Assembly: GCF_036588685.1 (NCBI RefSeq)
Contig: NC_086382.1
Location: 50,261,378-50,325,377, forward strand
Direction: 5' to 3'
Length of the DNA: 64,000 nucleotides
Source: Mytilus trossulus
Lineage: Eukaryota
The notes beneath the pieces were generated by a model, which did not search any database, was not told the DNA's origin, and saw nothing but the letters and a program-made list of their open reading frames with translations. Shown in pieces: positions 12,921 to 63,439 of this stretch (position 1 is the first letter of the stretch; every line of letters starts with the position of its first letter). Made by a program: the position numbers and the translations under genes.

Positions 12921-13677
12921 ATCTGTACATGTAAGGCTTATATATGACAACAAGAAAAATCCATGCTGTTTAGTCTGCTATAAAAGTCTCCAAACATGAA
13001 AAATTAGAAAACAATTCAATTCAGCAAACACTGAATTACAGACTCTTTGATTGGTTATTAACTGCGCCCTGGTGTGTTGTTGTAGCATGCTTGCCTCAAG
13101 TGCAGGAGATTGTGGGTTTGAAACCAAGAAGTATAACACAAAAGACTTTATTATTGGGTATTTGCTTCTTTTCTGTGATGCAACCGCATTAAAAAAATAA
13201 GAACAAGGACTGGTTTACCCTGAGTAAGAATTATGTGTTAAGGGTATACTGAGATGATCTGATTAATAGGGTAAAATTAAATAAATCAAGAATTCAAAAT
13301 TGATACTTTTAGCTTGAAGAGTATTAGTTCAGGATCAAAATAAGCTAAAATTGATAGGTCATGTAGCTCTTTTCAAGATATTTGACTTATGAAATATGGC
13401 AGAAAAAGGCTGACTTGGACTTTAACATTATATATGCAATGGTATTTTTTAGGTCTCAAATCAAAAGGAAGAAAATTAAGAATCTGCTTAAATTTTGTCA
13501 AATAACCTTTTATGAGCTATTAAGTCTCATGTAAAAAAGATAGATAGGTGTTATTGGGCAAAATATTTTACCTTGTTTGTATGGAAAATCACATTCAAGG
13601 AATCTGAACATTTGACACAAATTTCAAAACCTCCCTAATGGCTACATGTCTTCCGTAGAGACTCATTATCATCTTTA

Positions 13678-14275
13678 TTGTCTAGCTTGTTATATGTTTC
13701 TGGTTTATTTACAGAGTACACATGTTGTTTGTAATGACCCAGAAAAGGCAGATATCAGTTACAAATGTAAAATGGCCACAAAGTATGGATTACCAGTAGT
13801 GTCACTTGATTATATCCATGATTGTGTAGACCAGGGGAGATTACTCAATACAGATAATTACATCCTTGTTGTCTAGTTTGTTATATGTTTCTGGTTTATT
13901 TACAGAGTACACATGTTGTATGTAATGACTCAGAAAAGGCAGATATCAGTTACAAATGTAAAATGGCCACAAAGTATGGATTACCAGTAGTGTCACTTGA
14001 TTATATCCATGAGTGTGTAGACCAGGGGAAATCACTCTGTTGTCTAGCTTGTTATATATTTCTGGTTTATTTACAGAGTACACATGTTGTATGTAATGAC
14101 CCAGAAAAGGCAGATATCAGTTACAAATGTAAAATGGCCACAAAGTATGGATTACCAGTGGTGTCACTTGATTATATCCTTGATTGTGTAGACCAGGGGA
14201 GATTACTCAATACAGATAATTACATCCTGGTTGGAAAGACAAAGTCACAAGAATTCAGCAGTGGCAAAGTACCAG
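13678..14275 (+). repeat. PARP4: tandem triplication of a unit comprising the intron 3' end (acceptor) plus the BRCT-coding exon
   Basis: Units begin at 13678, 13869 and 14039. Each has ttatttacag followed by AGTACACATGTTGT... Only copy 3 continues to a GTAAGT donor (14276). Copy 2 is truncated and copy 1 ends without a canonical donor. Confidence 0.75.
14077..14275 (+). CDS. PARP4: PARP4-like exon 2 (BRCT: STHVVCNDPEKADISYKCKMATKYGLPVVSLDYILDCVDQGRLLNTDNYILVGKTKSQEFSSGKVP); alternative upstream copies at 13715-13864 and 13906-14035
   Basis: Phase 0 in, phase 1 out. Matches human CTHIILDNADV...IREKRLLDVKNY. Confidence 0.6.
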
Positions 14276-26912: not shown

Positions 26913-27739
26913 GTATAAAATCAGAGGCAAATGCACCTTCTATGTTGTGATGAAATTGAAAATAACTATCCTAATGTTTTGGGTGGTTTTTATACCCCCG
27001 CTTTACCCGCTTTAAAAAAGGGGGTATACTGTTTTACCTCTGTCTGTCTGTCCGTCAGTCCGTCCGTCAGTCCGTCCATCAGTCCGTCCATCAGTCCGTC
27101 CGTCAGTCAGTCCGTCCCATGAAACTTTCGTCACATTTTTCTCAGGAACTTACAATATAAGGATTTCTGAAATTTGGTTTCAGGGTTTATCTAAGTCACC
27201 TATACCGTGTGATGCGTTTTCAGATTGATCACTTGACAACTTCCTGTTTACCGAACACTTGTATGATTTTATACATGATAGCCAAGTTGAAAATTTTCGT
27301 CACATTTTTCTCAGGAACTACAATACAAGGATTTCTGAAATTTGGTTTCAGGGTTTATCTAAGTCAGGTATACCGTGTGATGCATTTTCAGATTCATCAC
27401 TTGACAACTTCCTGTTTACCGAACACTTGCATATTTTTACACTATTAATATTATCCACTTGCGGTGGGGGTATCATCAGTGAGTAGTAGCTCACAGTTTA
27501 CTTGTTATTATTGATCTTTTGCATTAGGATATACTCCAAAAAACTTTTCCTTTCTTTTAAGAATATGAATAAATTCACCACTTTTGACTTATTAAAAATC
27601 TAAGCAAGGTAAATAATTCTTTGCAGTTAATCCAGTTTCAGCTAATTTTGAAATAGAAGGTACAATGTCCAATGAATGTTAAGCAGGGGTTCTGATCCCG
27701 AATCCCACTTACTGTTTTGTAAGATTCCCTGTATCCCAC

Positions 27740-29029
27740 TTGCACTACATGTATGTAAGTAACCAATTCTCTTTTTGTCGAGCCTTCGACTTTAGTCGAA
27801 AAAGCGAGACTAAGCGATCCTACTTTCCGTCGGCGTCTGCGGCGGCGGCGGCGTCAACAAATATTCACTCTGTGGTTAAAGTTTTTTATACGACCGCTTC
27901 AAAATTTTCGTCGTATATTGCTATCACGTTGGCGTCGTCGTCTGTGCGTCGTTGTCGTCGTCGTCGTCGTCGTCGTCCGAAAATACTTTTAGTTTTCGCA
28001 CTCTAACTTTAGTAAAAGTGAATAGAAATCTATGAAATTTTAACACAAGGTTTATGACCATAAAAGGAAGGTTGGTATTGATTTTGGGAGTTTTGGTCCC
28101 AACATTTTAGGAATTAGGGGCCAAAAAGGGCCCAAATAAGCATTTTCTTGGTTTTCGCACTATAACTTTAGTTTAAGTTAATAGAAATCTATGAAATTTT
28201 GACACAAAGTTGATGACCACAAAAGAAAGGTTGGGATTGATTTTGGGAGTTTTGGTTTTAACAGTTTAGGAATTAGGGGCCAGAAAAGGGCCCAAATAAG
28301 CATTATTCTTGGTTTTCGCACAATAACTTTAGTTTAAGTAAATAGAAATCAATGAAATTTAAATATAATGTTTATGACCACAAAAGGAAGATTGGTATTG
28401 ATTTTGGGAGTTTAGATCCAAACAGTTTAGGAATTAGGGGCCAAAAAGGGACCCAAATAAGCATTTTTCTTGGTTTTCGCACCATAACGATAGTATAAGT
28501 AAATAGAAATCTATGAAATTTAAACACAAGGTTAATGACCATAAAAGGAAAGTTGGTATTGATTTTGGGAGTTTTGGTCCCAACAGTTTAGGAAAAAGGG
28601 GCCCAAAGGGTCCAAAATTAAACTTTGTTTGATTTCATCAAAATTGAATAATTGGGGTTCTTTGATATGCCGAATCTAACTGTGTATGTAGATTCTTAAC
28701 TTTTGGTCCCGTTTTCAAATTGGTCTACATTAAGGTCCAAAGGGTCCAAAATTAAACTTAGTTTGATTTTAACAAAAATTGAATCCTTGGAGTTCTTTGA
28801 TATGCTGAATCTAAAAATGTACTTAGATTTTTGATTATTGGCCCAGTTTTCAAGTTGGCCCAAATCGGGGTCCAAAATTTAACTTTTTTGATTTCATCAA
28901 AAATTGAATAAATGGGGTTCTTTGATATGCCAAATCTAACTGTGTATGTAGATTCTTCATTTTTATACGACCGCAAATTTTGAAAAAATTTTCGTCGTAT
29001 ATTGCTATCACGTTGGCGTCGTCGTCGTT

Positions 29030-29062
<33 letters not shown>

Positions 29063-32000
29063 CGAATACTTTTAGTTTTCGCACTCTAACTTTAGTAAAA
29101 GTGAATAGAAATCTATGAAATTTTAACACAAGGTTTATGACCATAAAAGGAAGGCTGGTATTGATTTTGGGAGTTTTGGTCCCAATATTTTAGGAATTAG
29201 GGGCCAAAAAGGGCCCAAATAAGCATTTTCTTGGTTTTCGCACTATAACTTTAGTTTAAGTTAATAGAAATCTATGAAATTTTGACACAAGGTTTATGAC
29301 CACAAAAGCAAGGTTGGGATTGATTTTGGGAGTTTTGGTTTCAACAGTTTAGGAATTAGGGGCCAAAAAAGGGCCCAAATAAGCATTATTCTTGGTTTTC
29401 GTACAATAACTTTAGTTAAAGTAAATAGAAATCAATGAAATTTAAACACAATGTTTATGACCGCTAAAGGAAGGTTGGTATTGATTTTGGGAGTTTCGGT
29501 CCTAACAGTTTAGGAATTAGGGGCCAAAAAGGGACCCAAATAAGCATTTTTCTTGGTTTTTCGCACCATAGCGTTAGTATAAGTAAATAGAAATCTATGA
29601 AATTTAAACACAAGGTTTATGACTATAAAAGGAAGGTTGGTATTGATTTTGGGAGTTTGGGTCCCAACAGTTAAGGAAAAAGGGGCCCAAAGGGTCCAAA
29701 ATTAAACTTTGTTTGATTTCATGAAAATTGAATAATTGGGGTTCTTTAATATGCCGAATCTAACTGTGTATGTAGATTCTTAATTTTTGGTCCTGTTTTC
29801 AAATTGGTCTACATTAAGGTCCAAAGGGTCCAAAATTAAACTTAGTTTGATTTTAACAAAAATCAAATTCTTGGGCCTCTTTGATATTCTGAATCTAAAC
29901 ATGTACTTAGATTTTTGATTATGGGCCCAGTTTTCAAGTTGGTCCAAATCAGGATCTAAAATTATTATATCAAGTCTTTTCAATTGCACAGTATTGTGCA
30001 ATGGCAAGAAATATCTAATTTCACAATATTGTGAAATAGCAAATTTTTTTTTAATTAAGAGTTATCTTTCTTTGTCCAGTAAAGTAAGCAAGAAATATCT
30101 GCAAGATTTTTTTTTAATTGGAGTTATCTTTCTTTGTCCAGAATCAACTTAAATCTTTGTTATATACAATATACAATGTATATTCACTTTTTACTACCAA
30201 CTGATAAATTTAAATAATCTTTACCATTCAGTGATAACAAGCAGTTTTTTTACATCTTAATATTTTATGATGTATTTAAATGAGTAGTAATTGTTGCAAA
30301 CTTCATTAGAATATTTTAATTGAAATTAGTTTTGGAATAAGGGAGAGGGGGATGTGATTAAAAAATTGGGTTCAAATTTTTCTCATTTGAAATTTCATAA
30401 ATAAAAAGAAAATTTCTTCAAACATTTTTTTGAGAGGATTAATATTCAACAGCATAGTGAATTGCTCTAAGAGAAAACAAAAAAATTAAGTTCATTTGAA
30501 TACATTCATTCTGTGTCAGAAACCTATGCTGTGTCAACTATTTAATCACAATCCAAATTTAGAGCGGAATCCAGCTTGAATGTTGTGTCCATACTTGCCC
30601 CAACTGTTCAGGGTTCAACCTCTGCGGTCGTATAAAGCTACGCCCTGCGGAGCATCTGGTTGGTCCTGTTTTCAAATTGGCCTACATTAAGGTCCAAAGA
30701 GTCCAAAATTAAACTAAGTTTGATTTTAACAAAAATTAAATTCTTGGGCCTCTTTGATATGCTGAATCTAAACATGTACTTAGATTTTTGATTATGGGCC
30801 CAGTTTTCAAGTTGGTCCAAATCAGGATCTAAAATTATTATATTAAGTATTGTGGAATAGCAAGTCTTTTCAATTGCACAGTATTGTGCAATGGCAAGAA
30901 ATATCTAATTTCACAATATTGTGAAATAGCAAATTTTTTTTTAATTAGAGTTATCTTTCTTTGTCCAAAATAGTAAGCAAGAAATATCTTATTGCAAGAA
31001 TTTTTTTTAATTGGAGTTATCTTTCTTTGTCCAGAATCAACTTAAATCTTTGTTATATACAATATACAATGTATATTCACCTTTTACTACCAACTGATAA
31101 ATTTAAATAATCTTTACCATTCAGTGATAACAAGCAGTTTTTTTACATTTTATTTACAGTTTATTTTATGATGTATTTAAATGAGTAGTTATTGTTGCAA
31201 ACTCCATTAGAATATTTTAATTGAGATTAGTTTTGGAATAAGGGAAAGGGGGATGTGATTAAAAAATTGGGTTCAATTTTTCTCATTTGAAATTTCATAA
31301 ATAAAAAGAAAATTTCTTCAAAAATTATTTTGAGAGGATTAATATTGAACAGCATAGTGAATTGCTCTAAGAGAAAACAAAAAAATTTAAGTTCATTAGA
31401 ACACATTCATTCTGTGTCAGAAACCTATGCTGTGTCAACTATTTAATCACAATCCAAATTAAGAGCTGAATCCAGCTTGAATGTTGTGTCCATACTTGCC
31501 CCAACCGTTCAGGGTTCAACCTCTGCCGTCGTATAAAGCTACGCCCTGCAAAGCATCTGGTTGAAATTTTAATAACTTTCTTAAACTATAATGGATTTCT
31601 ACCAAACTTGGACAGAAGCTTGTTTATGATCTTAAGATAGTATCCAGAAGTGAATTTTGTAAAAATAAAATTCAAATTTTTCCAAATTTTACTTATAAAT
31701 GGACTTAGTTTTTCTACGGGGAAACATTACATTCACTCTGTGGTTAAAGTTTTTAGAATTTTAATAACTTTCTTAAACTATCCTGGGTTTGTACCAAACT
31801 TGGACAGAAGCTTGTTTATGATCATAAGATAGTAACCAGAAGTAAATTTTGTAAAATAATAAATCCATTTTTTCCATATTTTACTTTTAAATGGACTTAG
31901 TTTTTCTGCGGGGAAACATTACATTCACCCTGTGGTCAATGGTGGTTAAAGTTTTTAAAATTTTAATAACTTTCTTAAACTATCCTGGGTTTGTACCAAA

Positions 32001-32250
32001 CTTGGACAGAAGCTTGTTTATGATCATAAGATAGTATCCAGAAGTGAATTTTGTAAAAAAATAAATCCATTTTTCCGTATTTTTCTTTTAAATGAACTTA
32101 AATTTTCTTCCAGTTAACCATACATACATGTACAGTCTGCAGTTGTTTTTAAAACATTTATTAGATTCATAAACTATCCTGGATTTTAACCAAACTTAGA
32201 CAGAAGCTTCTTAAAATCAGAAGATTGTATCAAGAGGAATATTTTTATTG
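27740..32250. repeat. nested repeat/TE cluster: (GCG/CGT)n microsatellites, TTTTATACGACCGC-type termini, 180-bp tandem arrays (28010-28620, 29120-29700), a 650-bp direct duplication (29950-30660 vs 30840-31560), and a 190-bp tandem array (31560-32250)
   Basis: Read directly: 27880-28965 is similar to 28965-29950; ttttatacgaccgc at 27880 and 28965 versus the inverted gcggtcgtataaag at 30625 and 31523. Confidence 0.6.
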
Positions 32251-35250: not shown

Positions 35251-35406
35251 GATGTATTTACAGTCAGTGTGGGTAATCTACCACCAGGGTGTGTGGCCCT
35301 CATCAAGATAACTTATGTATCAGAATTACAAGTAGAGGGAGAATTGATTAACTTTACAATTCCTGGATCTGTGGCTCCTTGGAAACAGGGACCCAGTAAT
35401 ACTGAG
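35251..35406 (+). CDS. PARP4: PARP4-like exon 15 (DVFTVSVGNLPPGCVALIKITYVSELQVEGELINFTIPGSVAPWKQGPSNTE)
   Basis: Human counterpart is DVFTVSVGNLPPKAKVLIKITYITEL...ATVAPWQQD. Confidence 0.8.
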
Positions 35407-35692
35407 GTAAGGGAGGTAATCTACCACCAGGGTGTGTAGCCCTCATCAAGATAACTTATGTATCAGAATTACAAGTAGAGGGAGAATTGATTAACTTTAC
35501 AATTCCTGGATCTGTGGCTCCTTGGAAAGAGGGACCCAGTAATACTGAGGTAAGGGAGGTAATCTACCACCAGGGTGTGTAGCCCTCATCAAGATAACTT
35601 ATGTATCAGAATTACAAGTAGAAGGAGAATTAATTAACTTCACAATTCCTGGATCTGTGGCTCCTTGGAAACAGGGACCCAGTAATACTGAG
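35407..35692 (+). repeat. PARP4: two extra tandem copies (143 bp each) of [first 8 nt of intron + last 135 nt of exon 15]
   Basis: gtaaggga + GGTAATCTACC...ACTGAG repeated at 35407 and 35550. The copies differ from the exon at a synonymous GTG-to-GTA site. The 143-nt length would shift the frame if the downstream donors were used. Confidence 0.8.
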
Positions 35693-36943
35693 GTAAGGGA
35701 GGTATTCTATAATATGGGGCTCTCATTATGGGTCTGATCCAGGATCCTGTTTATTGTTTTGTCAGATTAAAGAAGCCCACTTATCATTGTAATAAGTCAA
35801 TGGAGATAATTGGGACAACACCTCAAAATGAGGAACTCAAAAGTCATGTGTAAAGAAAAATCTCTGTGTAGTGAAATTGGACATGTTTCTATTTTTTTCA
35901 AATGACTGAGCTTAACCATTTGTGGTGATTAGGAAAGTAAAGAAACAAAGAATAAATTTGTAAAAACTATGGAGCTATTGAATATGTTCAAAGTATTAAA
36001 ATTTTCAAAGAACTTATTGTGTTAAAAAGGGGATACTTTACCACAAGGAGCCGCATCAAAAAGGATGTTCGGAGAATGCTAATTTACGAAAAAAGTAATC
36101 TCACTTCGTACCTTGAAAATTTAACCACATATGTTAAAATGTCACAAAAAAAGCTATCCTACATATCCAAGTTTACGATATGGATTAAGCTACAGGAAAA
36201 AACGTTACCATTACCGCCTATGAAAAAACAATAAAAGATATTGACCCAATTGCAAATAGACTGAGACAATGTGTTTGTCCCTAGATATGTTTTGTGCCAA
36301 AAATACAAGTCGTTCAATCTACAGTTCAAATGCTTGTTACAGGGAGAATGAGAAGGATAGACAATTAATACATAGAGAATAATACATGGCAAAATCCGTA
36401 TTATATGTTGTATCATCCCGAGACATCAATATCAGCCCAAGGGCCTTTAGGCCCGAGGGATGATATTGGTTGAGGGTGATACGGCATGTGATATGGATTT
36501 TGCCATGTATTATACGCTTTATCATATATTTCAACAGAAGAGTATTATATTATATGAACTGTTATCTGATCCATAGCACTGGGTTACCTTCAGTTCTGCA
36601 TTTGTCTTGTTTCAAAGCCTTAAAATAACTGCTCAATTATTTATACGAAGCACCTGGATTTTGCCATGTATTATCCTTACAATCTGTTGTTTTAAAAATA
36701 TTTTGTTTATTATTGTATTTATTTGAGTATTTTGTATTTTTTATACATGTATAGTTGCATTCAGTGTACCAAAAAATATGTTGTGAAAACTTATGTTCAT
36801 GACGTCACATACAATATTAAACTTGACGTTCGTGACGTTACATACCAAACAATGACGTCATTAAAAAAATTGACCTATTTTAAGGATTTTTTTCTTAAGC
36901 CAAAAATAAACAAAAACTGACTTCATGTAAAAAAAAAAAAAAA

Positions 36944-48504: not shown

Positions 48505-48585
48505 GTTCTTCACTGCTTGACTGCTAAAGCTGTGATCAGAGACTGGGAAGATGGAGTACTCTCCCCTGACAGTATTGACCATCAG
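48505..48585 (+). CDS. PARP4: PARP4-like exon 24
   Basis: VLHCLTAKAVIRDWEDGVLSPDSIDHQ. Human counterpart is IHKLAARALIRDYEDGILHENETSHE. Confidence 0.7.
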
Positions 48586-48725
48586 GTAAATATATACTTT
48601 ATAATAGAGACTGGAAAGATGGAGTACTCTCCCCTGATAGTATTGACCATCAGGTAAATATATACTTTATAATAGAGACTGGGAAGATGCAGTACTCTCC
48701 CCTGATAGTATTGACCATTATGTAT
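48586..48725 (+). repeat. PARP4: two extra tandem copies (69 bp each) of [first 24 nt of intron + last 45 nt of exon 24]
   Basis: gtaaatatatactttataatagag + ACTGG.AAGATG.AGTACTCTCCCCTGA.AGTATTGACCAT repeated. The copies carry a synonymous GAC-to-GAT change. Confidence 0.75.
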
Positions 48726-49215: not shown

Positions 49216-49317
49216 TTAAAGAAGATGAATATGAAAGACTATATAATAGAACTGAGTAAGAAATATTCCATTGTTACACAGCTGACAAGTTTTATTGCTG
49301 TAGAGAAAAGAGAAAAG
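49216..49317 (+). CDS. PARP4: PARP4-like exon 25
   Basis: LKKMNMKDYIIELSKKYSIVTQLTSFIAVEKREK. Human counterpart is LKSLIIKLSKENSLITQFTSFVAVEKRDE. Confidence 0.75.
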
Positions 49318-50149
49318 GTAATACTGAAATTTTGTGTATAAAAAAAACAGACAAAATTTTTCCGTAGTCATCTCAAAGTCTTGTTGCTGATTGCTTGAAT
49401 TACCTATTTATGAATCTCCCAGTAAAATAACATATCTTACACAAAAGTGATAGACCACATAAAACATGTTATTCTATTTACAAATATGCACACTGTTTAA
49501 AAAAAATATACCTAATACTTTTGTTCTTTTATTAATGTTAAGGTGAACTTAGGTGAAAATAAAAAAAATCAAGAATTAAAAATTGATACTTTAAGTCAAA
49601 TGAGTCTACCTTAAGAAACAAAATCAGCTTAAAATATTGATAGGTTAAGGAGATCCTTTTCAAGATATTTGATTTATAAAAAATGGGGTAAATGGTTACC
49701 TTATATTTGCATTGGTATTAGTTGGGTTTCAAATCAAAAGAAAAGAAATCAAGAATTTGCTAAAACTTTGGTAAATCATGGCTTTCATGAGCTATAAAGT
49801 CCTATATGAAAAGAAAAATGGGCGTAATGGGGCAAAATATGTTACCCTGCATATTAAAAAACAAGGAACATCTGACATCTTTTCCTAAACTGCACCCAAG
49901 TACATCCTTAATGTAAAATTAAAATAAAACTTGATGAAATGTTATGTTCAGGCCTGTAGCCAGGAATTTCCAAAGATGGTGTTATTTTGACTCACTAACT
50001 CGACTTTAACAGTCACAATTCAAACAGAACGTTGACTTTAACAGTGCTTATTTGTTTTCAAGGGGGTAGGTTGTACGAACCTATGAACCCCCTGGCTATG
50101 GGTATGATGTTAACATCTTTATATTGTGGATCATTAACTGATTATGATT

Positions 50150-50600
50150 AATTTTTATGCCCCACCTACGATAGTAGAGGGGCATTATGTTTTCTGGTCT
50201 GTGCCTCCGTTCGTTTGTTATCTGTCCAATCACTTTTGGTCAAGGTAGTTTTTGAAGAAGTTGAAGTCCAATCAACTTGAAACTTAGTACACATGTTCCC
50301 CATGATATGATCTTTCTAATTTTAATGCCAAATTATAGCTTTGACCCCAATTTTATGGTCCACTGAACATAGACAATGATAGTGCGAAGTTCAGGTTAAA
50401 GTTTTTGGTCAAGGTAGTTTTTGATGATGTTAAGGTTACATCAACTTGAAACTTGAAACTCAGTACACATGTTCCCTATGATATGGTCTTTCTAATTTTA
50501 ATTCCAAATTAGTTTTGACCCCAATTACACGGTCCACTGAACATAGAAAATGATAGTGCAAGTGGGTGATCCGTGTACTATGGACACATTCATGTTTTAG
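50150..50600 (+). repeat. repeat family B copy
   Basis: tttatgccccacctacgatagtagaggggcattatgttttctggtctgtgcctccgttcg ... gtccactgaacatagaaaatgatagtgcaagtgggtgatccgtgtactatggacacattc. Confidence 0.65.
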
Positions 50601-51019
50601 AAATGATATAAAATCTGTCTTCTGCAATTGATGTATCCAACCTGAGTCACTGTCATTATATCTAACAGATATTTTTTAAAAAGATTCAACTATTTCTAAA
50701 ACTTGGGAATATGTATGTGGCTTCTCAAAATCCTGAAGAGATCTAATATATTGAAAAATTTTAGAATGATTTTTTTTATTGTGATGGATTTTTGATTAAT
50801 TGACAAAATTGGAAGATTAATTATTTAAATTTTTAAATACAAATAAAACAAGCAAAATTTGAAAAAGAAGTTTTCATTTTTGCAAAGCTTATACTGTTGC
50901 AATTTTCTCAATATTAAAAACATCACAAATTATATCTGAATTTACTGTTTTAAAAGCAACACATTTATGAAGGCTGTCTTGATTATATACACAAACATTT
51001 TAAAAGCCTCTACTTGTTT

Positions 51020-54000
51020 GTTAAAGATTGTTTATTAAACATTTGTAGGATGAGGTAATATTGTCAGAGGGATCATTTATATTAGAGTTAGTTGATAGTT
51101 TGTTAGAGATTGTTTATTAAACATTTGTAGGATGAGGAAGTATCGTCAGAGGGATCATTTATATCAGAGTTAGTTGATAGTTTGTTAGAGATTGTTTATT
51201 AAACATTTGTAGGATGAGGTAGTATCGTCAGAGGGATCATTTATATCAGAGTTAGTTGATAGTTTGTTAGAGATTGTTTATTAAACATTTGTAGGATGAG
51301 GTAGTATCGTCAGATGGACCTTTTATATCAGAGTTAGTTGATAGTTTGTTAGAGATTGTTTATTAAACATTTGTAGGATGAGGAAGTATCATCAGATGGA
51401 CCTTTTATATCAGAGTTAGTTGATAGTTTGTTAGAGATTGTTTATTAAACATTTGTAGGATGAGGAAGTATCATCAGATGGACCTTTTTTATCAGAGTTA
51501 GTTGATAGTTTGTTAGAGATTGTTTATTAAACATTTGTAGGATGAGGTAGTATCGTCAGAGGGATCATTTATATCAGAGTTAGTTGATAGTTTGTTAGAG
51601 ATTGTTTATTAAACATTTGTAGGATGAGGAAGTATCATCAGATGGACCTTTTATATCAGAGTTAGTTGATAGTTTGTTAGAGATTGTTTATTAAACATTT
51701 GTAGGATGAGGTAGTATCATCAGAGGGATCATTTATATCAGAGTTAGTTGATAGTTTGTTAGAGATTGTTTATTAAACATTTGTAGGATGAGGTAGAATC
51801 GTCAGATGGACCTTTTATATCAGAGTTAGTTGATAGTTTGTTAGAGATTGTTTATTAAACATTTGTAGGATGAGGAAGTATCATCAGATGGACCTTTTAT
51901 ATCAGAGTTAGTTGATAGTTTGTTAGAGATTGTTTATTAAACATTTGTAGGATGAGGTAGTATCATCAGATGGACCTTTTATATCAGAGTTAGTTGATAG
52001 TTTGTTAGAGATTGTTTATTAAACATTTGTAGGATGAGGTAGAATCGTCAGATGGACCTTTTATATCAGAGTTAGTTGATAGTTTGTTAGAGATTGTTTA
52101 TTAAACATTTGTAGGATGAGGAAGTATCATCAGATGGACCTTTTATATCAGAGTTAGTTGATAGTTTGTTAGAGATTGTTTATTAAACATTTGTAGGATG
52201 AGGTAGTATCGTCAGAGGGATCATTTATATCAGAGTTAGTTGATAGTTTGTTAGAGATTGTTTATTAAACATTTGTAGGATGAGGTAGAATCGTCAGATG
52301 GACCTTTTATATCAGAGTTAGTTGATAGTTTGTTAGAGATTGTTTATTAAACATTTGTAGGATGAGGAAGTATCATCAGATGGACCTTTTATATCAGAGT
52401 TAGTTGATAGTTTGTTAGAGATTGTTTATTAAACATTTGTAGGATGAGGTAGTATCGTCAGAGGGATCATTTATATCAGAGTTAGTTGATAGTTTGTTAG
52501 AGATTGTTTATTAAACATTTGTAGGATGAGGTAGAATCGTCAGATGGACCTTTTATATCAGAGTTAGTTGATAGTTTGTTAGAGATTGTTTATTAAACAT
52601 TTGTAGGATGAGGAAGTATCATCAGATGGACCTTTTATATCAGAGTTAGTTGATAGTTTGTTAGAGATTGTTTATTAAACATTTGTAGGATGAGGTAGTA
52701 TCGTCAGAGGGATCATTTATATCAGAGTTAGTTGATAGTTTGTTAGAGATTGTTTATTAAACATTTGTAGGATGAGGTAGAATCGTCAGATGGACCTTTT
52801 ATATCAGAGTTAGTTGATAGTTTGTTAGAGATTGTTTATTAAACATTTGTAGGATGAGGAAGTATCATCAGATGGACCTTTTATATCAGAGTTAGTTGAT
52901 AGTTTGTTAGAGATTGTTTATTAAACATTTGTAGGATGAGGTAGAATCGTCAGATGGACCTTTTATATCAGAGTTAGTTGATAGTTTGTTAGAGATTGTT
53001 TATTAAACATTTGTAGGATGAGGAAGTATCATCAGATGGACCTTTTATATCAGAGTTAGTTGATAGTTTGTTAGAGATTGTTTATTAAACATTTGTAGGA
53101 TGAGGTAGTATCGTCAGAGGGATCATTTATATCAGAGTTAGTTGATAGTTTGTTAGAGATTGTTTATTAAACATTTGTAGGATGAGGAAGTATCATCAGA
53201 TGGACCTTTTATATCAGAGTTAGTTGATAGTTTGTTAGAGATTGTTTATTAAACATTTGTAGGATGAGGAAGTATCATCAGATGGACCTTTTATATCAGA
53301 GTTAGTTGATAGTTTGTTAGAGATTGTTTATTAAACATTTGTAGGATGAGGTAGTATCGTCAGAGGGATCATTTATATCAGAGTTAGTTGATAGTTTGTT
53401 AGAGATTGTTTATTAAACATTTGTAGGATGAGGTAGAATCGTCAGATGGACCTTTTATATCAGAGTTAGTTGATAGTTTGTTAGAGATTGTTTATTAAAC
53501 ATTTGTAGGATGAGGAAGTATCGTCAGATGGACCTTTTATATCAGAGTTAGTTGATAGTTTGTTAGAGATTGTTTATTAAACATTTGTAGGATGAGGAAG
53601 TATCATCAGATGGACCTTTTATATCAGAGTTAGTTGATAGTTTGTTAGAGATTGTTTATTAAACATTTGTAGGATGAGGTAGTATCGTCAGAGGGATCAT
53701 TTATATCAGAGTTAGTTGATAGTTTGTTAGAGATTGTTTATTAAACATTTGTAGGATGAGGAAGTATCATCAGATGGACCTTTTATATCAGAGTTAGTTG
53801 ATAGTTTGTTAGAGATTGTTTATTAAACATTTGTAGGATGAGGAAGTATCATCAGATGGACCTTTTATATCAGAGTTAGTTGATAGTTTGTTAGAGATTG
53901 TTTATTAAACATTTGTAGGATGAGGAAGTATCGTCAGATGGACCTTTTATATCAGAGTTAGTTGATAGTTTGTTAGAGATTGTTTATTAAACATTTGTAG
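51020..54000 (+). repeat. PARP4: tandem array of about 38 copies of a 78-bp unit, where each unit is the intron 3' end (ttgttagagattgtttattaaacatttgtag) plus the first 47 nt of exon 26 (GATGAGGAAGTATCATCAGATGGACCTTTTATATCAGAGTTAGTTGATAG)
   Basis: Read directly. At least three unit variants (GAGGAAGTATCATCAGATGGACC, GAGGTAGTATCGTCAGAGGGATC, GAGGTAGAATCGTCAGATGGACC) alternate in a higher-order pattern. The last unit runs straight into the authentic exon 26. Confidence 0.9.
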
Positions 54001-54097
54001 GATGAGGAAGTATCGTCAGATGGACCTTTTATATCAGAGTTAGTTGATAGAGAAGATGTGGACTTCCTTAACTACCTCAACTGGGAGGGAGAGACAG
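54001..54097 (+). CDS. PARP4: PARP4-like exon 26
   Basis: DEEVSSDGPFISELVDREDVDFLNYLNWEGET(G). Human counterpart is PFPDIPKVSELIAKEDVDFLPYMSWQGEPQ. Donor GTAAGT. Phase 1 out. Confidence 0.75.
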
Positions 54098-55127
54098 GTA
54101 AGTAATCAATAGACTTTTCTCATAATACCCACTTTTGACTTCAGATTTTTTTTTCTGTCAAAAGGTACCTATTATGTGGTAAACATCTTAGTACTCAGAC
54201 AAGTCAAGAAAGAGCAACAAGAAGAAGTAAAATCAAACATCTAATTGGTTCAATTTTTGGGAAAAGTTTTCTGTTTCCCATAATTTGTCCTATAAAGAAA
54301 AAGTAAAACTAAATTTCCCCTTAAATTGTAAAGATTGTAAGCTTGGCTTCTTTAACTGAAAGTTGCTCCTACTTGTCAGAGTACCAGGATGTCCAACTAC
54401 AGATAAGTTAACCTGTCTAAAAAAACAAACTACGGAGTCAAAAGTTGGTAATATGAAAATAGTCTTATGTTCTAAAAATTCATCTGCTTACCAAAGAAGT
54501 ATTTTTTGCCATAATTTGTAGATGTTTATATTTAACCTTCTGTGTGATCCTAACATATTTTGGAGTTTTGTGACTGTAACACCTTGTGGAGGAATCTCTT
54601 CTGAGACGATTTCACAGAAAGCTCTCACATGCATATCAGTCAACTGACCCGTATTCTGCGGGTGTGACCCGAGATTTTCACAATTATGAAGGATCACCCG
54701 GGACACCCGCCGGGTCATTCAAATAACCCGGGAATTCCGAAAATGACCCGATTTCACCCGTTTTTCTTAGCTTTGAGATTGATTTCATAAGTAATATATT
54801 CCTTTGAAATACCGGAATATTCGTAATTCTTCCATGAACAGGAAGTTCATTTAGCTATACAAACTGTCAAATTAAGTGACCCATTAAGGGTATGGCTTCA
54901 CTTGACAGCTTTGGTGTCAAACAAACTGTTAATTAACACCAATTACCTTAGCTTTAGGTCGTAAATAAATTGTAAACATATTTCAAATAGACGTCTAGAG
55001 TTACTTCCCCTTATTTGTCACCATTCAAAATTATTCCTTATATTTACGTTTTGTGGGTGAAAAAGATTAAATCATTAATAAATATAAAATTCAAATACAT
55101 ATTGAAAACTAAATTTTTATTTATATA

Positions 55128-56230: not shown

Positions 56231-57948
56231 GTAAAATAGAGGCATTTGTGCTATAGGAGATTAAGATTAAGACAAAAAAGTCAAGTTTTGAAAATACTAA
56301 AGAACTGAAGATCATTTTGAAAAAATATGGTTAGTTAATGTGATTAATGAAGGGAGAGGTATATTTTGAGGCTCTTGATCATAAATATAATAGGACAATT
56401 CTGTTTTTGATAACCTTTTGACTCCAAAGCTTATGTGAATGATCTTCATCACTTTGGTATTGGTCATCCTCTGCCTTAAGCTATTTTTGGGCTGGCAAAT
56501 TTAACAAAAAGCATAGATTTAAAAATAAGGAGACGTGGTATGATTGCCAATGAGACATCTATCCAACAAAGTTCAAATAAGTGGATGCATGACACCAGTT
56601 GTAATCTGTTCAGATTGACCAGTTTGCAAATTTTTCTTCTCTGAAACTAAATTGTGAAATGAATTTGAAATTTCTTAGGATTGATGATTCTAAGACCCTC
56701 CACAACTGTCCTCATTTTATGTCAATTTAGTGGCAGATATGACATCATCTTGATACATTGCTACCATTTGAAAACAATTAATAAAAAGCAGAGGCAGATT
56801 TAGGGCCCTTTAGTGGAAACATTTTGGTTGGTTATATAGGGAATCACCGAAGCGTGATTGGAGCGGGCCCCCTCATAGGCAGCCAGTGAGCCCCCACTTA
56901 GGAAAATTTCTGGATCCGCCACTGAAAAGCATCATTAAACTGTTTAAATCATGACTAAAACTGTGATCACTTTGATAGTAAAACACTTTGATTTTCACCG
57001 TAGCACTAATATTGAAAAAACTTTTTTGCTGAAGCACAATGGGATTAGGATATTTAAAATGCCAAAATCATATAACTCTTACCTTGACCCTTGACCCATA
57101 TGATAGATATTTGAGTTCAGGGCATAATTGCATGTTCTTTGAAAACTTAGAATAACCAAAAATAAGTCAAACTTAGTGCGCAGATGCATTATGGGAAGGC
57201 GATTTTTCAGTGACATTTTTGTCATTGTGGCATTTACCTTTGACCCCCAAAAAGTTTTTGAACTTTACATTTGCTATCAGCAAAAATGGTAGTTGAATAT
57301 CCAATAAATATCAAATGATCATATAAAATGAATGACTGACTAGACGAACAAGCCAGAAGTTAATATTTATGTACAGTGGTTGAGGGGCTGGTTCCCCCTA
57401 TATTGAACCAGACGAATTCCTCAAAAAAGCATGTCCAAAGAGAACCATAACTGCCTAGAGATTTGAAGAATACCACACAACAAATATTGTGGAAAAGCAA
57501 GTAAAGAATAACTCTAAGTGTTTTGACATTTCACCAAGCAAAACACCACAATACTCAAACTCAATCTTTGTAAAGACAATGATCGTGTGGAATCAGCTAG
57601 ATGTCACTGTAGTGCTTGCATCAAGTGTAGAGAGCTTCAAATCTGCTCTCATGCCCCATCAATGAATTGGTGTCACTCTCTCAAACCATTGTATGAAAGC
57701 AAGTATTGGTACAGACAACGTATTCATACAGGTACAGATGACTGAAAGCAAAAAATCGCAAAATGACATTGTCTCAATACGCAATTTCACTGCAACACCT
57801 AGAATACATGTGCAGGTATTAGTCTGAAACTATATGTTGGAAAAGCTCTAACTGTAATTGGGTAAATGTCTCATTGATGTTTACCACACATTTGGTTTTG
57901 TTTATGTATATTTTTGATTTTGATATTTAATAATATGTATATTTTCAG

Positions 57949-58092
57949 AACTGAAAGAAGCTTTCCATTTATTTTCTGAAGATGATGGGCATACAATTTC
58001 TACAAAAGATGTTGGGCCTCTCATGAAGGCTTTGGGTCAAAATCCAACAGAAGCAGAACTACAAATCATAATAAATGATCTTGACTTTGATG
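57949..58092 (+). CDS. calmodulin-like exon (EF-hands 1-2: [49 protein letters not shown])
   Basis: Aligns to calmodulin [49 protein letters not shown]. Acceptor attttcag, donor G|gtaatc. Confidence 0.7.
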
Positions 58093-58196
58093 GTAATCTA
58101 TTCCAAGCATAATTTGTATCAATGAAAAATAATCTATAAGATATAGATAGAAATTTATAAATTATGTCTGCAAGCAAGCTAATTTTAAGTGGTATA

Positions 58197-58575
58197 AACT
58201 AGTGTTGTCGGTTAACCGTCGTAAGGACCAAATACCGAATACCAAAAACGCTAAGCGGTTAACCGGGCGGGTTTTTTTTCTTCAAATTTTTAGATTTGAA
58301 ATAAATGTATTGAAATCATTAATTAATATATAATAAACGCCATAGTAGTTACAGAGTATGGGATTATTAAAAGTCAAACTTCCGCAGGAATCCTCACAGA
58401 CAACGCTTTATAATGTCAAAGGACAAACTTTAGTTCATGGTATATAATATTAAAACGTACATTTAAAAGTTGCAACAGATAAGGCCGTCAAACATTAACT
58501 TAAACTACTGGTTAACCGGTTAATCGGTCGAACGATACTTCGAGTAACCGGTTAGGCAAAACTGTACAATTTGAC
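58197..58575. mobile_element. MITE-like element with about 12-bp TIRs (ACTAGTGTTGTC ... GACAACACTAGT)
   Basis: Both termini are flanked by ATAA(ACT). Confidence 0.4.
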
Positions 58576-59645
58576 AACACTAGTATAAACTGTACTCAAC
58601 TGAAATAAAAACTTGTTTTTGTTTGCTAAAAAATTATCATGTATTGTTTTCAGTGTAATGCCATTGTTAAAAGATACTTACATATATAAAGGACAAGGTA
58701 CGATAAGGCCCAACTTTCTGGTTTTATACAAATATTGTAATTATTATTGACTTTGTAGGTGTTCAGTACAACTAATTTTTAGTTTTTTAGTGCCTGCCCG
58801 AACGTGACCCAGGATTTTTTTTATTCCAATGTCATGAGAACTGTTTTTGCTGTCTAAATCGCCATAATTTTCTCTTGGTCACGTAGGCACACACTATTAA
58901 ATTTTAAGAAACAATGGCCGAAAAACGTTATTTTCCTTCTTTTGGATTTTTTATGCCCTTTTACCCTCCTCACCTCACCCATTTTCTGAAATTGATGGTT
59001 TTGAAGTTCATCCAAACAAACTTCAAACCTAAGGGAATATTTTAACGTGATAAGAAGCTTTCCAAAACAAAATTTGAAAATGAGAAAATAGGGGGGCCAA
59101 AAACCAGCCTTATAGTACCTTGTCCTATATATAATATGAGGCAGGCATTACCTGTAAATGGGGACGAAGTCTGTATGAATTATATTTTTGTAACTTAAAT
59201 ATTTGTTAAAAAAAGAAACGGAAATATACCGTCATGTTTCCGATATTGGTTCTGTCGTTAGGGAGTTTAGTTGTGACGTTATTTAAGTTATGACGTCATA
59301 TGCAATGTAAACAAAGAAACACTATCATCAGGTAACGTTTTTTCATTAAAAATGAAATTGATATTGCGTTTCTTCCTTTTTATAATAGATTGGTAAATAT
59401 ATATTTTACTTAAAGATTCATACAAACAAAACCGGAAAAAGGAAGTACATTGTAGATTTCTGCGCAAGTCCGGGATTTCAAAACATGACATAAAAAAAAT
59501 TGAATGATTTTGAGTTCATTAGTACAATGAAAAATTCGGGAAATTTTCCCGATTTTTTTTTTTATATTGAAATTTCTACTGTTATTGGGGACTTCGTCAC
59601 CATATAAAAAAATATATAAATTTAGATTTTAAATTTGTATTTTAG

Positions 59646-59953
59646 ATAGAGGTACAGTTGACTTTCCAGGATTTTACACATTAATGACACATAAAATGAA
59701 AGATACTGATGCAGAAGAAGAAATAATGGAAGCATTCAAAGTATTTGACAAAGATGGTAAAGGATCTATCAGCATGTCAGATTTAAGACATGTGATGACA
59801 AACTTAGGGGAGAAATTAACAGACGAGGAGATTGAAGAAATGATGAGAGAAGCTGATGTGGACAGTACTGACCAACAGATTGATTATTTTGCCTTTGTAA
59901 AGAGGATGATGGACGAGGAAAAATGTGAACCAGTTCAGCCTTCGGGTAATTAA
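59646..59953 (+). CDS. calmodulin-like terminal exon (EF-hands 2-4, stop TAA at 59951)
   Basis: [84 protein letters not shown]... Calmodulin counterpart is [76 protein letters not shown]. Confidence 0.8.
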
Positions 59954-60077: not shown

Positions 60078-60685
60078 CAAAAATATGCATATGTTTTTTT
60101 ATAACTAAATAGATAGTTTTCATTATACAACTTATGTACATGTACTTTTTTCTGAGGAAAATTCTTTAATTTGTCCACATTTAGAAGAAGTTTTCTTATT
60201 TTTCATTGCTTCCAGGAAGCAATTCGCTGACATAATTTCCGTATGCATAGTGACCTGAGCGTAACCCTCCTCGTTAAAATCCGGTGATCGCAATATGCAT
60301 GGATCTGTCATTAAAATAAACAATTATCTGATTGTACATGTTAAACACATGCTCAATACCTATGCTTTTTGTTATTTGTTTACTATAAGGTGACAATAGG
60401 TAAACTTCGTCTTCAAAATACGGTATTTAATGAGCAGCCATATTTGTTAAATCATAACAGACAGGAAGAGAGAAAAAAATGACGATTAAATGATATATTT
60501 GCGTAAAAAATGATAAATTCCTGCCCAGTCTGGACTAAGTTTAAGATATATACTTGCATTGGTTCAAGAATTGGATAACATTATTTTTCACCACTCACTC
60601 GTTTCTTATGACTTTAATGATCATTGATATGCAGATAAATTTCAAACATTTATATGAATAGAAAATGATCTACTGTTAATTTCAG

Positions 60686-60874
60686 AACAAGACACAAGAT
60701 CCAAATCCAGCCAAATAAAGAACAAAGGTGGTTTTAAAACTCCTGCAGCACAAGAAACTGTGGAAAACTTAAAGGAAAAAGAAGTCATGTTAGGGAAAAA
60801 ACAAGATTTCCTTGAAAAGAAGGTGGACAAGGAACTGAAGTTGGCAAAAGAAAATGCTGCCACAAACAAAACAG
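60686..60874 (+). CDS. CHMP4: CHMP4/Snf7-like (ESCRT-III) internal exon
   Basis: ...KNKGGFKTPAAQETVENLKEKEVMLGKKQDFLEKKVDKELKLAKENAATNKT. CHMP4B counterpart is GGPTPQEAIQRLRDTEEMLSKKQEFLEKKIEQELTAAKKHGTKNKR. The start codon lies upstream and was not found; the in-frame upstream genomic codon is TGA. Confidence 0.7.
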
Positions 60875-60974
60875 GTAATTATTGCAAGTAATCTTAAAAA
60901 TTGGAGTTATCTTCTTATGTAAACAATTGTAGTTGATTCAGCTACAACCAATGCTTATACAATGCAATATTTAA

Positions 60975-61340
60975 TTTTACTTAAGAATTGAATGCATCTT
61001 TTTGTAAATTTATTGGAGTGTAAAAGCCTGGACTGAAGTACATTTTGTATGAAGCACGGAAGTGCTTCATTTTTAAAAATGTGTGTACGGTCAACACTTT
61101 TATAACCCTATAAAGTTACAAAAAGAAGCATTCAATACTTATAATTACATTTTTTAGCTAGGATAATGAAACACGATTTTTATCAAGTTTTTATTTAATT
61201 CACCTGTGTACTTTATTATGGGACCTCGTGTCATTATGAATAGTTTTATTGTGTAATGTAATTGCTTATGGAATAACACGTGCTGTGCAGTTAGCCAATC
61301 AAAATTAACGTATTATAATGAAACATACATCTAATGTAAT
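60975..61340 (+). mobile_element. MITE family C copy (in a CHMP4 intron)
   Basis: aagaattgaatgcatctttttgtaaatttattggagtgtaaaagcctggactg...gaagtgcttcatt...ggtcaacacttttataaccc. Confidence 0.6.
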
Positions 61341-61878
61341 TATTTTCCATTGATAAGTTGAATCAATCTACCATTCAGTACTGATAATTATTTAAATTTA
61401 CTGTTTTGCCTAATACCTGTATGTTGAATACTTTTAAAATTGTTAGATATAACCTTTAATTAGTAGATATGAAGCTTCATCAGTATTTGAAAACATTGAT
61501 CCAAGAAATTTTGAATGTAGCACTGCAGTAAAAAGTGTGCAGTGCTGTTACTTTAAAGATCCCATAGGACAACAAAACAGAAACCTTCAATAAAAAAAAA
61601 TGGCTATTTTAATGCTAGCACCTAGAAATCACTAGTTAAAAACTGTCTGCACACAGTTTTTTGATGATCAATGATTGCTCCTTGGATCCTGTTTTGATTC
61701 AAGTGTCACTCATGAGTCTTTTGTAGACCAAACACATGATCAGTGTACACAGTTTTAATCCTGGTATTGTGAGTTTATTATATTTAATGGCAATATGATT
61801 GAATGAATATTCCATTTAAATCTTCATCTTTGTGTGCATTAACATGGAAATTTATAGTGAGTTTTCACCTATCAATAG

Positions 61879-62056
61879 TTGCTCTGCAAGCTTTAAAGAG
61901 AAAAAAGAGGTATGAAAAACAGTTACAGCAAGTGGATGGAACACTAACAACTATGGAATTTCAGCGAGAGGCATTGGAGCAGGCAACAACTAACAAAGAA
62001 GTTTTGAGTTGTTTGGGTGGGGCTACTAAAGCCTTAAAGATGATCGAGCAACACGG
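61879..62056 (+). CDS. CHMP4: CHMP4/Snf7-like exon
   Basis: (V)ALQALKRKKRYEKQLQQVDGTLTTMEFQREALEQATTNKEVLSCLGGATKALKMIEQH. CHMP4B counterpart is AALQALKRKKRYEKQLAQIDGTLSTIEFQREALENANTNTEVLKNMGYAAKAMKAAH. Confidence 0.85.
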
Positions 62057-62918
62057 GTAAGAATCCAAACATGCATTAAATGTTTAATATCTCATATTTT
62101 TTAATTCTTTACTAAAGAATCCAATTTGATTTTCTTCATCCGACTTCAACAATGAACAAAACCCTTACTATTTAGTAGCTTTAACAATTAAGGAAAACAA
62201 ATGTGTAGGACAGCTATCAAAGCAACCCAATAACATGCTCCCACCTTTATATACAAAATGTGGTAGGTTATACAGATTTGTGAGCACTTATTCTCACCTT
62301 ACCTTGGACAGAAGTGTAACAGCACAACATAAGAACAAACTATGGTATTCAATTTACATAGAACAGAAAACAACGAATAAATATACTAAAGAAACAAAGT
62401 ACAGATCTAAGATGACTGGCAGCTTGTGAAGGTCTATGTATGATCTTAGTTAAAAAGTTTTCCCTTCAGACTTCATTCTTTATTAGCACTGAAGCAATTT
62501 TTCAAAGATTTTATGCTTATATTTAAGGATTTATTTGTAAAGGTATGTAAAATAATTCTCGATGGATTTAACTTGATGTCATTTCTCATCTAGAAGACTG
62601 TTTATCTTTATTTTGCTTTATTTATAGCATTACAGCTGACTGTGATAGGTTTCCCAAAACACAAAAACAGATCTATTACTGACTTATATTAAGTTTTATG
62701 TATTTCATTCAATTCAAAATAAATCTCTAATATTTTAGTAACCTTTCCTAAAGTATTTGCTGTGACAATACAATTTTTCATGGAAAAGCATGGACGATTT
62801 CATTTTTTTTTTTAAAAGGATGAAATTCTCTGAGAGGAAGAAATCATTCTGCCACAAAGTTGACTATTTTTTTTTCTTCCTCATATAACATATATGTAGT
62901 TTTTATGTTTTTTTCCAG

Positions 62919-63003
62919 GGATATTGTTCATGTTCATGATCTATTGTCTGATGAAATATGTGATGCTATTTCTTCTAATTATTTTGGATTGACAGCAGAT
63001 GAG
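62919..63003 (+). CDS. CHMP4: CHMP4/Snf7-like exon
   Basis: (G)DIVHVHDLLSDEICDAISSNYFGLTADE. CHMP4B counterpart is DNMDIDKVDELMQDIADQQELAEEISTAISKPVGFGEEFDEDE. Phase 2 in, phase 0 out. Confidence 0.55.
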
Positions 63004-63439
63004 GTTAGTATTGTCATGAAAATGCATGATATATTTGCCACTGGAAATTAAAACAACTTACACTCAACAGTATATATGCATATCAGAAACACAAGGGTGA
63101 TCTGATAACTGTTAGAAAATAAAGGGGATCTGGGATATACATCAGTTAGACAGCAACAAAAACAATCAAAGAATTGACTACAATCAAGTTTTTTCTGGTA
63201 TATTCTTGATTGAGGTCTGAGAGTTTATTCACATTTCTCAAACATTTAAATAAAAATCTAGTTCATGTTCAACCAACAATTGTCAAACAATATCTTGGTA
63301 TTTATTAAGGAATTCCATGTATTTTTATTGAAAAGGTTATGTAAGATCACTATATATATCTATATGATTGTCCCTTTCAACAGCTGAAAATGAAATGCAG
63401 GTCGTGTTCTACATTGAGGAAGAAAAAGTCCAGTCAAAA

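Follow-up and report, generated by a model that had tools for sequence, protein, structure and literature searches.

Thirty-seven tandem copies of an intron–exon boundary in a PARP4-like gene of the mussel Mytilus trossulus

We describe a tandem array in which the end of an intron and the beginning of the exon that follows it are repeated together 37 times, inside a PARP4-like gene of Mytilus trossulus. The array lies in a stretch of 64,000 nucleotides (NCBI RefSeq assembly GCF_036588685.1, contig NC_086382.1, positions 50,261,378 to 50,325,377 of the forward strand), which we call the window and number from its first letter. Only the last copy is joined to the remainder of the exon, and the other 36 therefore sit in the intron as pseudo-acceptors identical in sequence to the real one. 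By analogy with the boundary repeats known as mirage minisatellites in amphioxus, we think it probable that the array is a silent mirage, a near-neutral intronic minisatellite, and that splicing goes to the last acceptor.

Results

Anatomy of the Array

Tandem Repeats Finder placed the array at 51016–54050, with a period of 82, 37.0 copies, 96% matches, 0% indels and a score of 5517, by far the largest array of the 64-kb window. One unit consists of a 33-nt intron tail, GTTTGTTAGAGATTGTTTATTAAACATTTGTAG, which ends in ttgtag, and a 49-nt exon head of the form GATGAGG...GTTGATA. When the array is cut at TTGTAG/GATGAGG, which occurs at 37 sites, the units are spaced by exactly 82 bp in 36 of 36 intervals. 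The intron tail is identical in 36 units, the sole exception being unit 1, which has TAAAG in place of TAGAG. A 30-nt probe spanning the acceptor gave 37 matches with 0 mismatches, 0 matches elsewhere in the window and 0 in 100 shuffles, which excludes chance as the source of the pattern.

An earlier note on this DNA, made from its letters, had described a boundary array of about 3 kb at this place, amplified roughly 38-fold in units of 78 bp that each copy a 3′ splice site and the start of an exon. The array is present and its structural reading holds. The unit proved to be 82 bp, however, and the count 37 acceptors, made up of 36 decoys and the real one; the consensus that was given for the unit also omits two common variable positions, head 8 (A/T) and head 11 (T/A). 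The claim that only the last copy continues was confirmed: REDVDFLNYLNWEGET and the donor CAG/gtaagt at 54098 follow the final unit and no other.

A search of the 64-kb window for further copies of the 82-bp unit found 0, whereas the gene's arrays of 169, 161 and 135 bp do have related copies there. Open reading frames are short throughout the array, the longest open frame on either strand spanning at most 36 codons and the longest one with a start codon 29 amino acids. Compared with Rfam, the unit matched no family, and its RNA folding was no better than that of shuffled sequence (z = -0.54). Candidate branch-point adenines, placed from the yUnAy consensus only, lie 10–15 nt upstream of the last AG. 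A near-palindrome of 13 nt, TGTTTATTAAACA, recurs in each unit; it occupies positions −20 to −8 relative to the acceptor and overlies the likely branch-point region (51029–51041, then every 82 bp). Its halves resemble forkhead-type binding cores, and the array has multiplied this motif 37-fold. The GC skew is strongly positive over the array (+0.29 at 50–52 kb and +0.55 at 52–54 kb, with flanks at ~0), owing to the composition of the unit. The coordinates of the array, of the exons around it and of the related features discussed below are collected in Table 1.

Table 1. Positions in the window of the array, its flanking exons and the other boundary repeats of the gene
Feature	Positions	Strand	Remarks
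Upstream exon (~exon 25)	49217–49317	+	...KYSIVTQLTSFIAVEKREK, ...SFIAVEKREK; ends in phase 0; 78% identity to Lingula P0006 (tblastn)
Array-bearing intron, 4,683 nt	49318–54000	+	Array takes up the final 2,985 nt
36 decoy units of 82 bp	51016–53967	+	Decoy exon starts at 51049 + 82n, n = 0 to 35
Edge unit 1	51016–51097	+	Adjoins unique intron; most diverged copy, 8 differences from the real copy
Higher-order repeat zone, units 13–26	52000–53147	+	Variant order C-A-B, 246-bp period
Intron tail of the last unit, with the presumed authentic acceptor	53968–54000	+	AG at 53999–54000
Authentic exon (~exon 26), 97 nt	54001–54097	+	DEEVSSDGPFISELVDREDVDFLNYLNWEGET; aligns with Lingula, Saccostrea and P0125
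Donor of the authentic exon, CAG/gtaagt	54098–54103	+	Score 8.8, highest of the 19 scored donors in the gene
Acceptor-type boundary repeat, intron tail and BRCT-exon head, 191/171 bp x3	13665–14233	+	Exon starts at 13715, 13906 and 14077 (real)
Donor-type boundary repeat, VIT exon body and GAG/gtaagg, 143 bp x3.1	35272–35709	+	Donors at 35407 (real), 35550 and 35693
Donor-type boundary repeat, last 48 nt of exon 24 and 20 nt of intron, 68 bp x2.7	48538–48718	+	CAG/gtaaat at 48586 (real) and 48654; third copy degenerate

The Host Gene

The window has a G+C content of ~31%, with introns and LINE-like fragments, and its + strand encodes BRCT, PARP catalytic, VIT and vWA segments from ~13.6 kb to at least 54.1 kb. 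The VIT domain is 86% identical to the PARP4 matches of Crassostrea gigas and Solemya velum, and the best relatives found with the VIT/vWA query reach 80–86%. Judged by these similarities, the host gene is PARP4-like (vault PARP) and lies on the + strand. A PARP4-like protein of Lingula (P0006) maps exon by exon onto 37.8–54.1 kb (tblastn). We could map 25 exons between 14077 and 54097, plus at least one upstream, and the designation of the array's exon as exon 26 in the earlier note is reasonable.

The exon before the array ends in the donor AAG/gtaata at 49318, which scores 1.3, and the intron that separates it from the authentic exon also holds a dispersed-repeat fragment at ~50.15–50.6 kb. 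The first 49 nt of the authentic exon are the repeated head, while its last 48 nt are unique and purine-rich (~62% by hand count). Whichever of the 37 acceptors is taken as the starting point, the donor CAG/gtaagt that closes this exon is the only strong one downstream.

Repeats Derived from an Older Exon Head

After ...EKREK, the predicted protein of this window continues with DEEVSSDGPFISELVDREDVDFLNYLNWEGET, that of Lingula with DEDMSSEGPRIEAILAEEDVDILPYIGWKE (DEDMSSEGPRIEAIL...), that of Saccostrea cucullata with DEVIPEDAPDVWDLLENEDVDQLKYLSWEGEE (DEVIPEDAPDVWDLL...) and that of a relative (P0125) with DEAAVVDD... The head peptide is thus shared with an oyster (Saccostrea) and a brachiopod (Lingula), and the exon deserves to be called conserved, as the earlier note had it. 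Since the head is conserved in both, the repeat derives from the exon. In Saccostrea, an intron of 494 nt occupies the same position in the same phase and has no tandem repeat, and in L004 these exons are contiguous, with no intron between them; the boundary thus existed before the array, which amplified it in a lineage-specific way. Lingula is known from a protein model only, and the shared intron position rests on the oyster. These comparisons establish both the ancestry of the exon head and the lineage-specific origin of the array.

The founding junction shares 1 nt (G) between the exon side, ...GTTGATA[G]AGAAG, and the intron side, ...CTACTT[G]TTTGTTA. A TAGAGA microhomology at the duplication junction was considered and rejected, as the similar 10-mers lie 74 bp apart and not 82 bp. 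At the first codons of the head, the oyster exon (L003 5391–5399) starts with GATGAGGTG (Asp-Glu-Val), as do the decoys B and C (GATGAGGTA), which belong to the T-type units with T at head position 8. The real copy at 54001–54009 has GATGAGGAA (Asp-Glu-Glu), unlike the oyster and the T-type decoys. On the basis of one site, an older allele of the exon may survive in the decoys.

Variants and Growth of the Array

Ten head columns vary among the units and define four recurrent variants, A (13 units), B (8), C (7) and D (3, the type of the real exon), together with six singletons. Along the array, the units follow each other in the order EFBGAHBAICAJCABCABCABCACABAABCDABAADD. The singleton variants all fall within units 1–12, and units 13–37 are made of the four recurrent variants only. 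The identity between units peaks at lags 3 and 6, reaching 0.981 at lag 3 versus 0.960 at lag 1 in units 13–37. Three variants alternating as A, B, A, C had been reported before; we do find a higher-order repeat, but it runs as C-A-B over 246 bp, and the array as a whole has four recurrent variants plus singletons. The higher-order structure shows that amplification followed diversification, as also proposed earlier.

Four-gamete violations were found among head sites 8, 15 and 21, and since all four allele combinations occur there, segments must have been exchanged between units. Taken as a whole, the array has the usual signature of one that grew by unequal exchange or slippage and was homogenized except at its edges. 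We propose that an 82-bp boundary piece, consisting of 33 nt of intron end and 49 nt of exon start, was first duplicated head to tail and that unequal exchange or replication slippage then brought it to 37 copies, a 3-unit block being amplified along the way.

Ten of the 11 variable columns are located in the exon-derived head (binomial P = 0.03), and the tail is invariant in 36 of 37 units. We give this asymmetry little weight because it stems from only ~4–5 independent events, sites 21, 25 and 27 being fully linked. A constraint on the acceptor tail, as an explanation of the invariant tail and variable head, was set aside on the same ground of too few independent events.

Splice-Site Strength and the Consequences of Decoy Use

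The scoring of splice sites relied on a weight matrix that is generic and crude rather than on a trained model; the reference was a curated set of 18 acceptors and 19 donors of this gene, three of an initial 21 acceptors having been left out because their coordinates were off by 1–2 nt. The acceptor of the array scores 0.5, whereas the 18 acceptors of the gene have a median of 1.3 and range from -3.4 to 5.1. The earlier note had called each unit's 3′ splice site perfect; the decoys are identical to the real acceptor, yet that acceptor is of ordinary strength for the gene.

The 19 real donors score from 1.1 to 8.8. Within the unit, the best GT is that of GAG/gtagta or GAG/gtagaa, with a score of 0.2, and it occurs only in the 19 T-type units. 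The other donors available in the unit score lower still: AGA/gttagt has -1.9, GAA/gtatca -4.8 and ATA/gtttgt, at the end of the unit, -5.7.

Splicing of exon 25 to any of the 36 upstream acceptors would, in the phase set by exon 25, add 16 head codons and then SLLEIVY before a TAA (...ELVDSLLEIVY-stop). The in-frame TAA comes after 23 codons for every decoy, and the earlier note was right that the use of an upstream acceptor would cause premature termination. The escape that it left open, an internal gttag serving as a micro-donor, is not borne out: at -1.9 this site is below every real donor, and the 38-nt exon that it would define, like the 49-nt exon ending at gtttgt, shifts the frame into a stop when spliced to the real acceptor. 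The frame is kept only by hypothetical micro-exons of 6 nt or 9 nt.

Other Boundary Repeats in the Gene and in a Relative

The gene contains three further tandem repeats that span a splice junction (Table 1). The middle copy of the BRCT repeat is 171 nt long, equal to 57 codons, and free of stops, and the use of its acceptor at 13906 would insert an in-frame partial duplication of the BRCT; the first copy (13715) runs into a TAG. At the VIT exon, the decoy donors at 35550 and 35693 give a frameshift and in-frame stops, and at exon 24 the 68 nt that the decoy donor at 48654 would add are not divisible by three.

There are 13 arrays with a period of at least 20 bp in the gene. Seven have related copies in the window and are transposon-borne or segmental, and six are unique to their locus; four of these six straddle a splice junction. 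With 50 junctions in 40.5 kb, of which 8.6% is exonic, a permutation test gave P = 0.002 for the four of six and P = 0.10 for all 13 arrays. The enrichment at junctions is suggestive but not proven, because the arrays were sorted as unique or dispersed only once the data had been seen.

A genomic contig of a relative (L002, positions 1–453; ENA ERZ27229325 k141_180878) carries exon 25 at 87% nucleotide identity, with introns that cannot be aligned. At the orthologous donor of exon 24, it has at least five units of 94 bp whose junction differs from that of the 68-bp unit in the window. Given the different junction and the unalignable flanking introns, the exon-24 arrays either arose independently or have long been turning over. 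The end of exon 24 is present once in a spliced, transcript-like contig of the relative (L001; ENA ERZ27229307 k141_1964).

The same contig, from a relative 87–89% identical in nucleotides, was the only spliced contig found in a search for transcripts over the junction of exons 25 and 26. At 377–505 it contains exon 25 followed by an exon that encodes EEERNGDVRQTPWAKVDKTVLSKRVSPPPSKEEDHSAMLSACK and has no counterpart in this window. As it continues into a different exon after exon 25, it is uninformative on the choice of acceptor at the array. The exon encoding EEERNGDVRQTPWAKVDKTVLSKRVSPPPSKEEDHSAMLSACK could be alternative or lineage-specific, or could come from a paralogue or a chimeric contig.

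Surroundings in the Window

An intronic block at 27000–32200 consists of transposon-like or segmental repeats with (GTCC)n and (CGT)n runs, and includes the 161-bp and 135-bp satellites, each present twice at 97–99% identity. The 169-bp repeat family extends over at least four introns of the gene, with related repeats at 21.7, 22.0–22.4, 39.6–39.8 and 50.2–50.6 kb. Upstream, positions 1–3400 hold two adjacent partial copies of a LINE-like reverse transcriptase. Downstream of the PARP4-like gene, its strand also carries two more genes, a divergent calmodulin-like EF-hand one and a CHMP4/Snf7-like one (57900–59950; 60650–63050).

Discussion

How would the splicing machinery find one acceptor among 37? 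Upstream of the AG, units 2–37 are identical over more than 100 nt, and the 49 nt downstream are shared by all 37 acceptors, so the choice of acceptor must depend on sequence further downstream. Under cross-exon recognition (exon definition), the strong donor 97 nt downstream would pair with the nearest acceptor upstream of it. Exon definition would thus select the last copy, as that copy alone has the purine-rich remainder of the exon and the consensus donor. The decoys would remain silent because they have no usable donor of their own, and their occasional use would yield a transcript ending in ...ELVDSLLEIVY-stop that nonsense-mediated decay would probably remove. From the behavior of the known analogues, we infer that the array is a neutral or mildly costly by-product and not a designed regulator, and that mis-spliced RNA is probably decayed.

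Several points weigh against a silent array. Paired with the true donor, the decoys closest to it would define exons of 179, 261 and 343 nt, and since such sizes are compatible with exon definition, competition from these decoys is plausible. Co-transcriptional splicing on a first-come-first-served basis would favor the decoys, which are transcribed up to 3 kb earlier. The purine-rich GATGAGGAAG at the start of each decoy head could act as an enhancer. Duplicated acceptors gave conflicting results in early experiments, as summarized in PMC1557585. The known acceptor-type mirages have 3–6 copies and not 36, and the analogy is therefore extrapolated six-fold or more; acceptor usage in this species is argued here from analogy only.

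These points lead to the strongest competing explanation, also that of the earlier note, in which the array is functional or harmful: the 36 pseudo-acceptors would take a substantial share of exon-25 splicing and produce degraded stop-containing transcripts or a truncated PARP4 (...ELVDSLLEIVY), and the length of the array would tune or cripple PARP4 output. The decoys do match the real acceptor over 33 nt upstream and 49 nt downstream of it, are transcribed first, give acceptable exon sizes with the true donor when nearest to it (179–343 nt), and lead without exception to a premature stop; a tail that stays the same in 36 of 37 units beside a variable head (P ~0.03) could also hint at constraint on the acceptor module. 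This last asymmetry goes back to only ~4–5 independent events, however, and the decoys lack donors of their own. The natural analogues that have been tested all splice normally (PMC3087553, PMC3902484, PMC1557585), and in the relative the spliced contig carries the end of exon 24 once despite the repeated donor in the genomic contig. A crippling defect is also hard to square with the gene's intact and conserved remainder. We regard such a role for the decoys as unlikely; a regulatory or pathological function is unsupported at present, and the known analogues speak against it.

The remaining alternatives are far less probable. Tandem arrays are error-prone in assemblies, a single haplotype is considered here and the BflGb6 mirage of amphioxus was aberrantly assembled in the draft genome (PMC3087553), so the true locus might have one or a few copies and the copy number might be an artefact or inflated. 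The ordered, nonrandom structure of the array, with its 3-unit period, its singletons confined to units 1–12 and its diverged edge unit, is hard to reconcile with this, as are the perfect 82-bp register without indels over 3 kb, the three smaller boundary repeats in the same gene and the independent one in the separate assembly of the relative. We thus consider an assembly artefact very improbable.

Still less credible is a coding role, with the units serving as Dscam-like alternative exons or as in-frame micro-exons that add Asp-Glu or Asp-Glu-Glu. The micro-exons GATGAG/gtag (6 nt, in the 19 T-type units) and GATGAGGAA/gtat (9 nt, in A-type units) would keep the frame, and no variant of the head has a stop in the frame of the exon. 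Against these stand the weak in-unit donors (0.2 for GAG/gtagta and -4.8 for GAA/gtatca, versus at least 1.1 for real ones), the 82-nt unit, which is not a multiple of 3 and has stops in all frames, the 49-nt head, which shifts the frame into a stop, and the orthologues, which have a single DE... start.

Least probable of all is exonization, in which the exon would owe a new start to a satellite or transposon-borne repeat that existed beforehand and inserted into the intron: bivalve genomes contain many dispersed or transposon-borne satellites, and other arrays in the introns of this gene are of that kind, but the array is younger than both the head peptide and the intron position (both in the oyster, the peptide also in the brachiopod), the unit is absent from the rest of the 64-kb window, and the first tail runs on from unique intron as the last head does into unique exon.

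The class of boundary repeats itself is already known: it was named about two decades ago and has been documented mainly in amphioxus and in a variable number tandem repeat (VNTR) at a donor of the human gene F7. New here are the mollusc host, the size of the array, the three further boundary repeats in the same gene and the separate array in a related species. A literature search over a limited body of full texts found no reports of boundary-spanning repeats in molluscs, and nothing specific on duplicated 3′ splice sites. With four such repeats in this mollusc gene, one of them holding 37 acceptors identical in sequence, the class now reaches into another phylum and to a far greater size. The array also offers a natural experiment that sets exon definition against scanning or first-come-first-served selection of the 3′ splice site. 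For annotation it is a trap, as gene predictors may choose a decoy and call a truncated protein. If the decoys were used appreciably, the length of the array would be a heritable dial on the expression of PARP4 (vault PARP).

Whether the duplication of boundaries reflects a process associated with splice junctions, mutational or driven by conversion and acting also outside cephalochordates, or is a random accident that survived, bears on how general such repeats are. We advance the former as a tentative idea, suggested by the four of six locus-unique arrays at splice junctions and by the diverged relative's array at one of the same boundaries, and rather doubt it. If it were true, mirages would be general and recurrent in some invertebrate genomes, and the present array would be a test bed for acceptor choice, as F7 was for donors.

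Among known arrangements, mutually exclusive exon clusters (Dscam) and recursive splice sites resemble the array in having many tandem acceptors upstream of a constitutive exon. The units are not complete exons as in the former: no GT in the unit reaches the weakest real donor, and both unit and head break the frame. Recursive splice sites have the form AG/GT; here the junction is tag/GATGAG, and the nearest GT lies 6 nt downstream, in the 19 T-type units only.

Intron gain by tandem duplication was reportedly described by Hellsten et al. in Nat Commun in 2011. In Rogers' model, as discussed in PMC3087553, introns are gained by tandem duplication over AG/GT proto-splice sites. The array shares with this model that duplicated splice signals leave the mRNA unchanged and that the extra copy is spliced out. 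It differs in that no new intron is created and an existing one is lengthened by 3 kb.

In intron 7 of human F7, the first unit of a 37-bp VNTR spans the donor of exon 7 and is followed by a row of 5–9 identical pseudo-donors (Borensztajn et al. 2006, PMC1557585). These pseudo-donors are functional but silent, and the most upstream donor is always chosen (PMC1557585). Both systems present a row of sites identical to the real one, the others of which would mostly break the frame, and in F7 the copy attached to the body of the exon is the one used. F7 repeats a donor in 5–9 copies, with the authentic site most upstream, whereas the array repeats an acceptor in 37 copies, with the authentic site most downstream. 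The rule that explains F7, by which 5′ to 3′ scanning stops at the first donor, has no simple mirror image for acceptors. Pseudo-donors of the F7 type are lacking in the array itself and are found in the repeats at 35272–35709 and 48538–48718, which are the direct counterparts of F7.

The closest resemblance is to the mirage minisatellites of amphioxus, first described in Adh3 (Canestro, Gonzalez-Duarte & Albalat 2002, Nucleic Acids Res 30:2871, as cited in PMC3087553). They have since been reported from the globins BflGb6 and BflGb9 (PMC3087553), from PGBD5 (PMC3902484), and from the TnC, presenilin and retinol dehydrogenase loci, with units of 10 to ~160 bp. In BflGb6, an intron's 3′ end together with the 5′ portion of exon 2 are repeated in 3–6 units, differing between haplotypes, and in BflGb9 it is the 3′ boundary of an exon that is repeated (PMC3087553). 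Reverse transcription PCR showed splicing to be undisturbed by mirages, including the acceptor-type one of BflGb6, and detected no aberrant mRNA; their copy number varies between haplotypes, and they evolve in concert, with edge units escaping homogenization (PMC3087553, PMC3902484). The mechanism that generates them was described as unclear, and cephalochordates in general may have them (PMC3087553, PMC3902484).

Compared with these, the array stands apart by its mollusc host, by its 37 units versus 3–6 in BflGb6, by its 3-unit higher-order repeat and by the presence of four such repeats in one gene. The likenesses are extensive: the units span a boundary and carry its splice signal, with BflGb6 showing the same acceptor-type layout; 5′ and 3′ boundaries are both affected, and several repeats per gene are possible (two in PGBD5); and the units evolve in concert while those at the edge are not homogenized. 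The array is a head-to-tail repeat with a unit of minisatellite size that contains intron, exon and the splice signal of a homology-verified exon. At the scale of the window it is locally derived and not a copy of a dispersed element, with no second copy in 64 kb, and it is homogenized to the exclusion of its edge. In every structural respect it matches a mirage.

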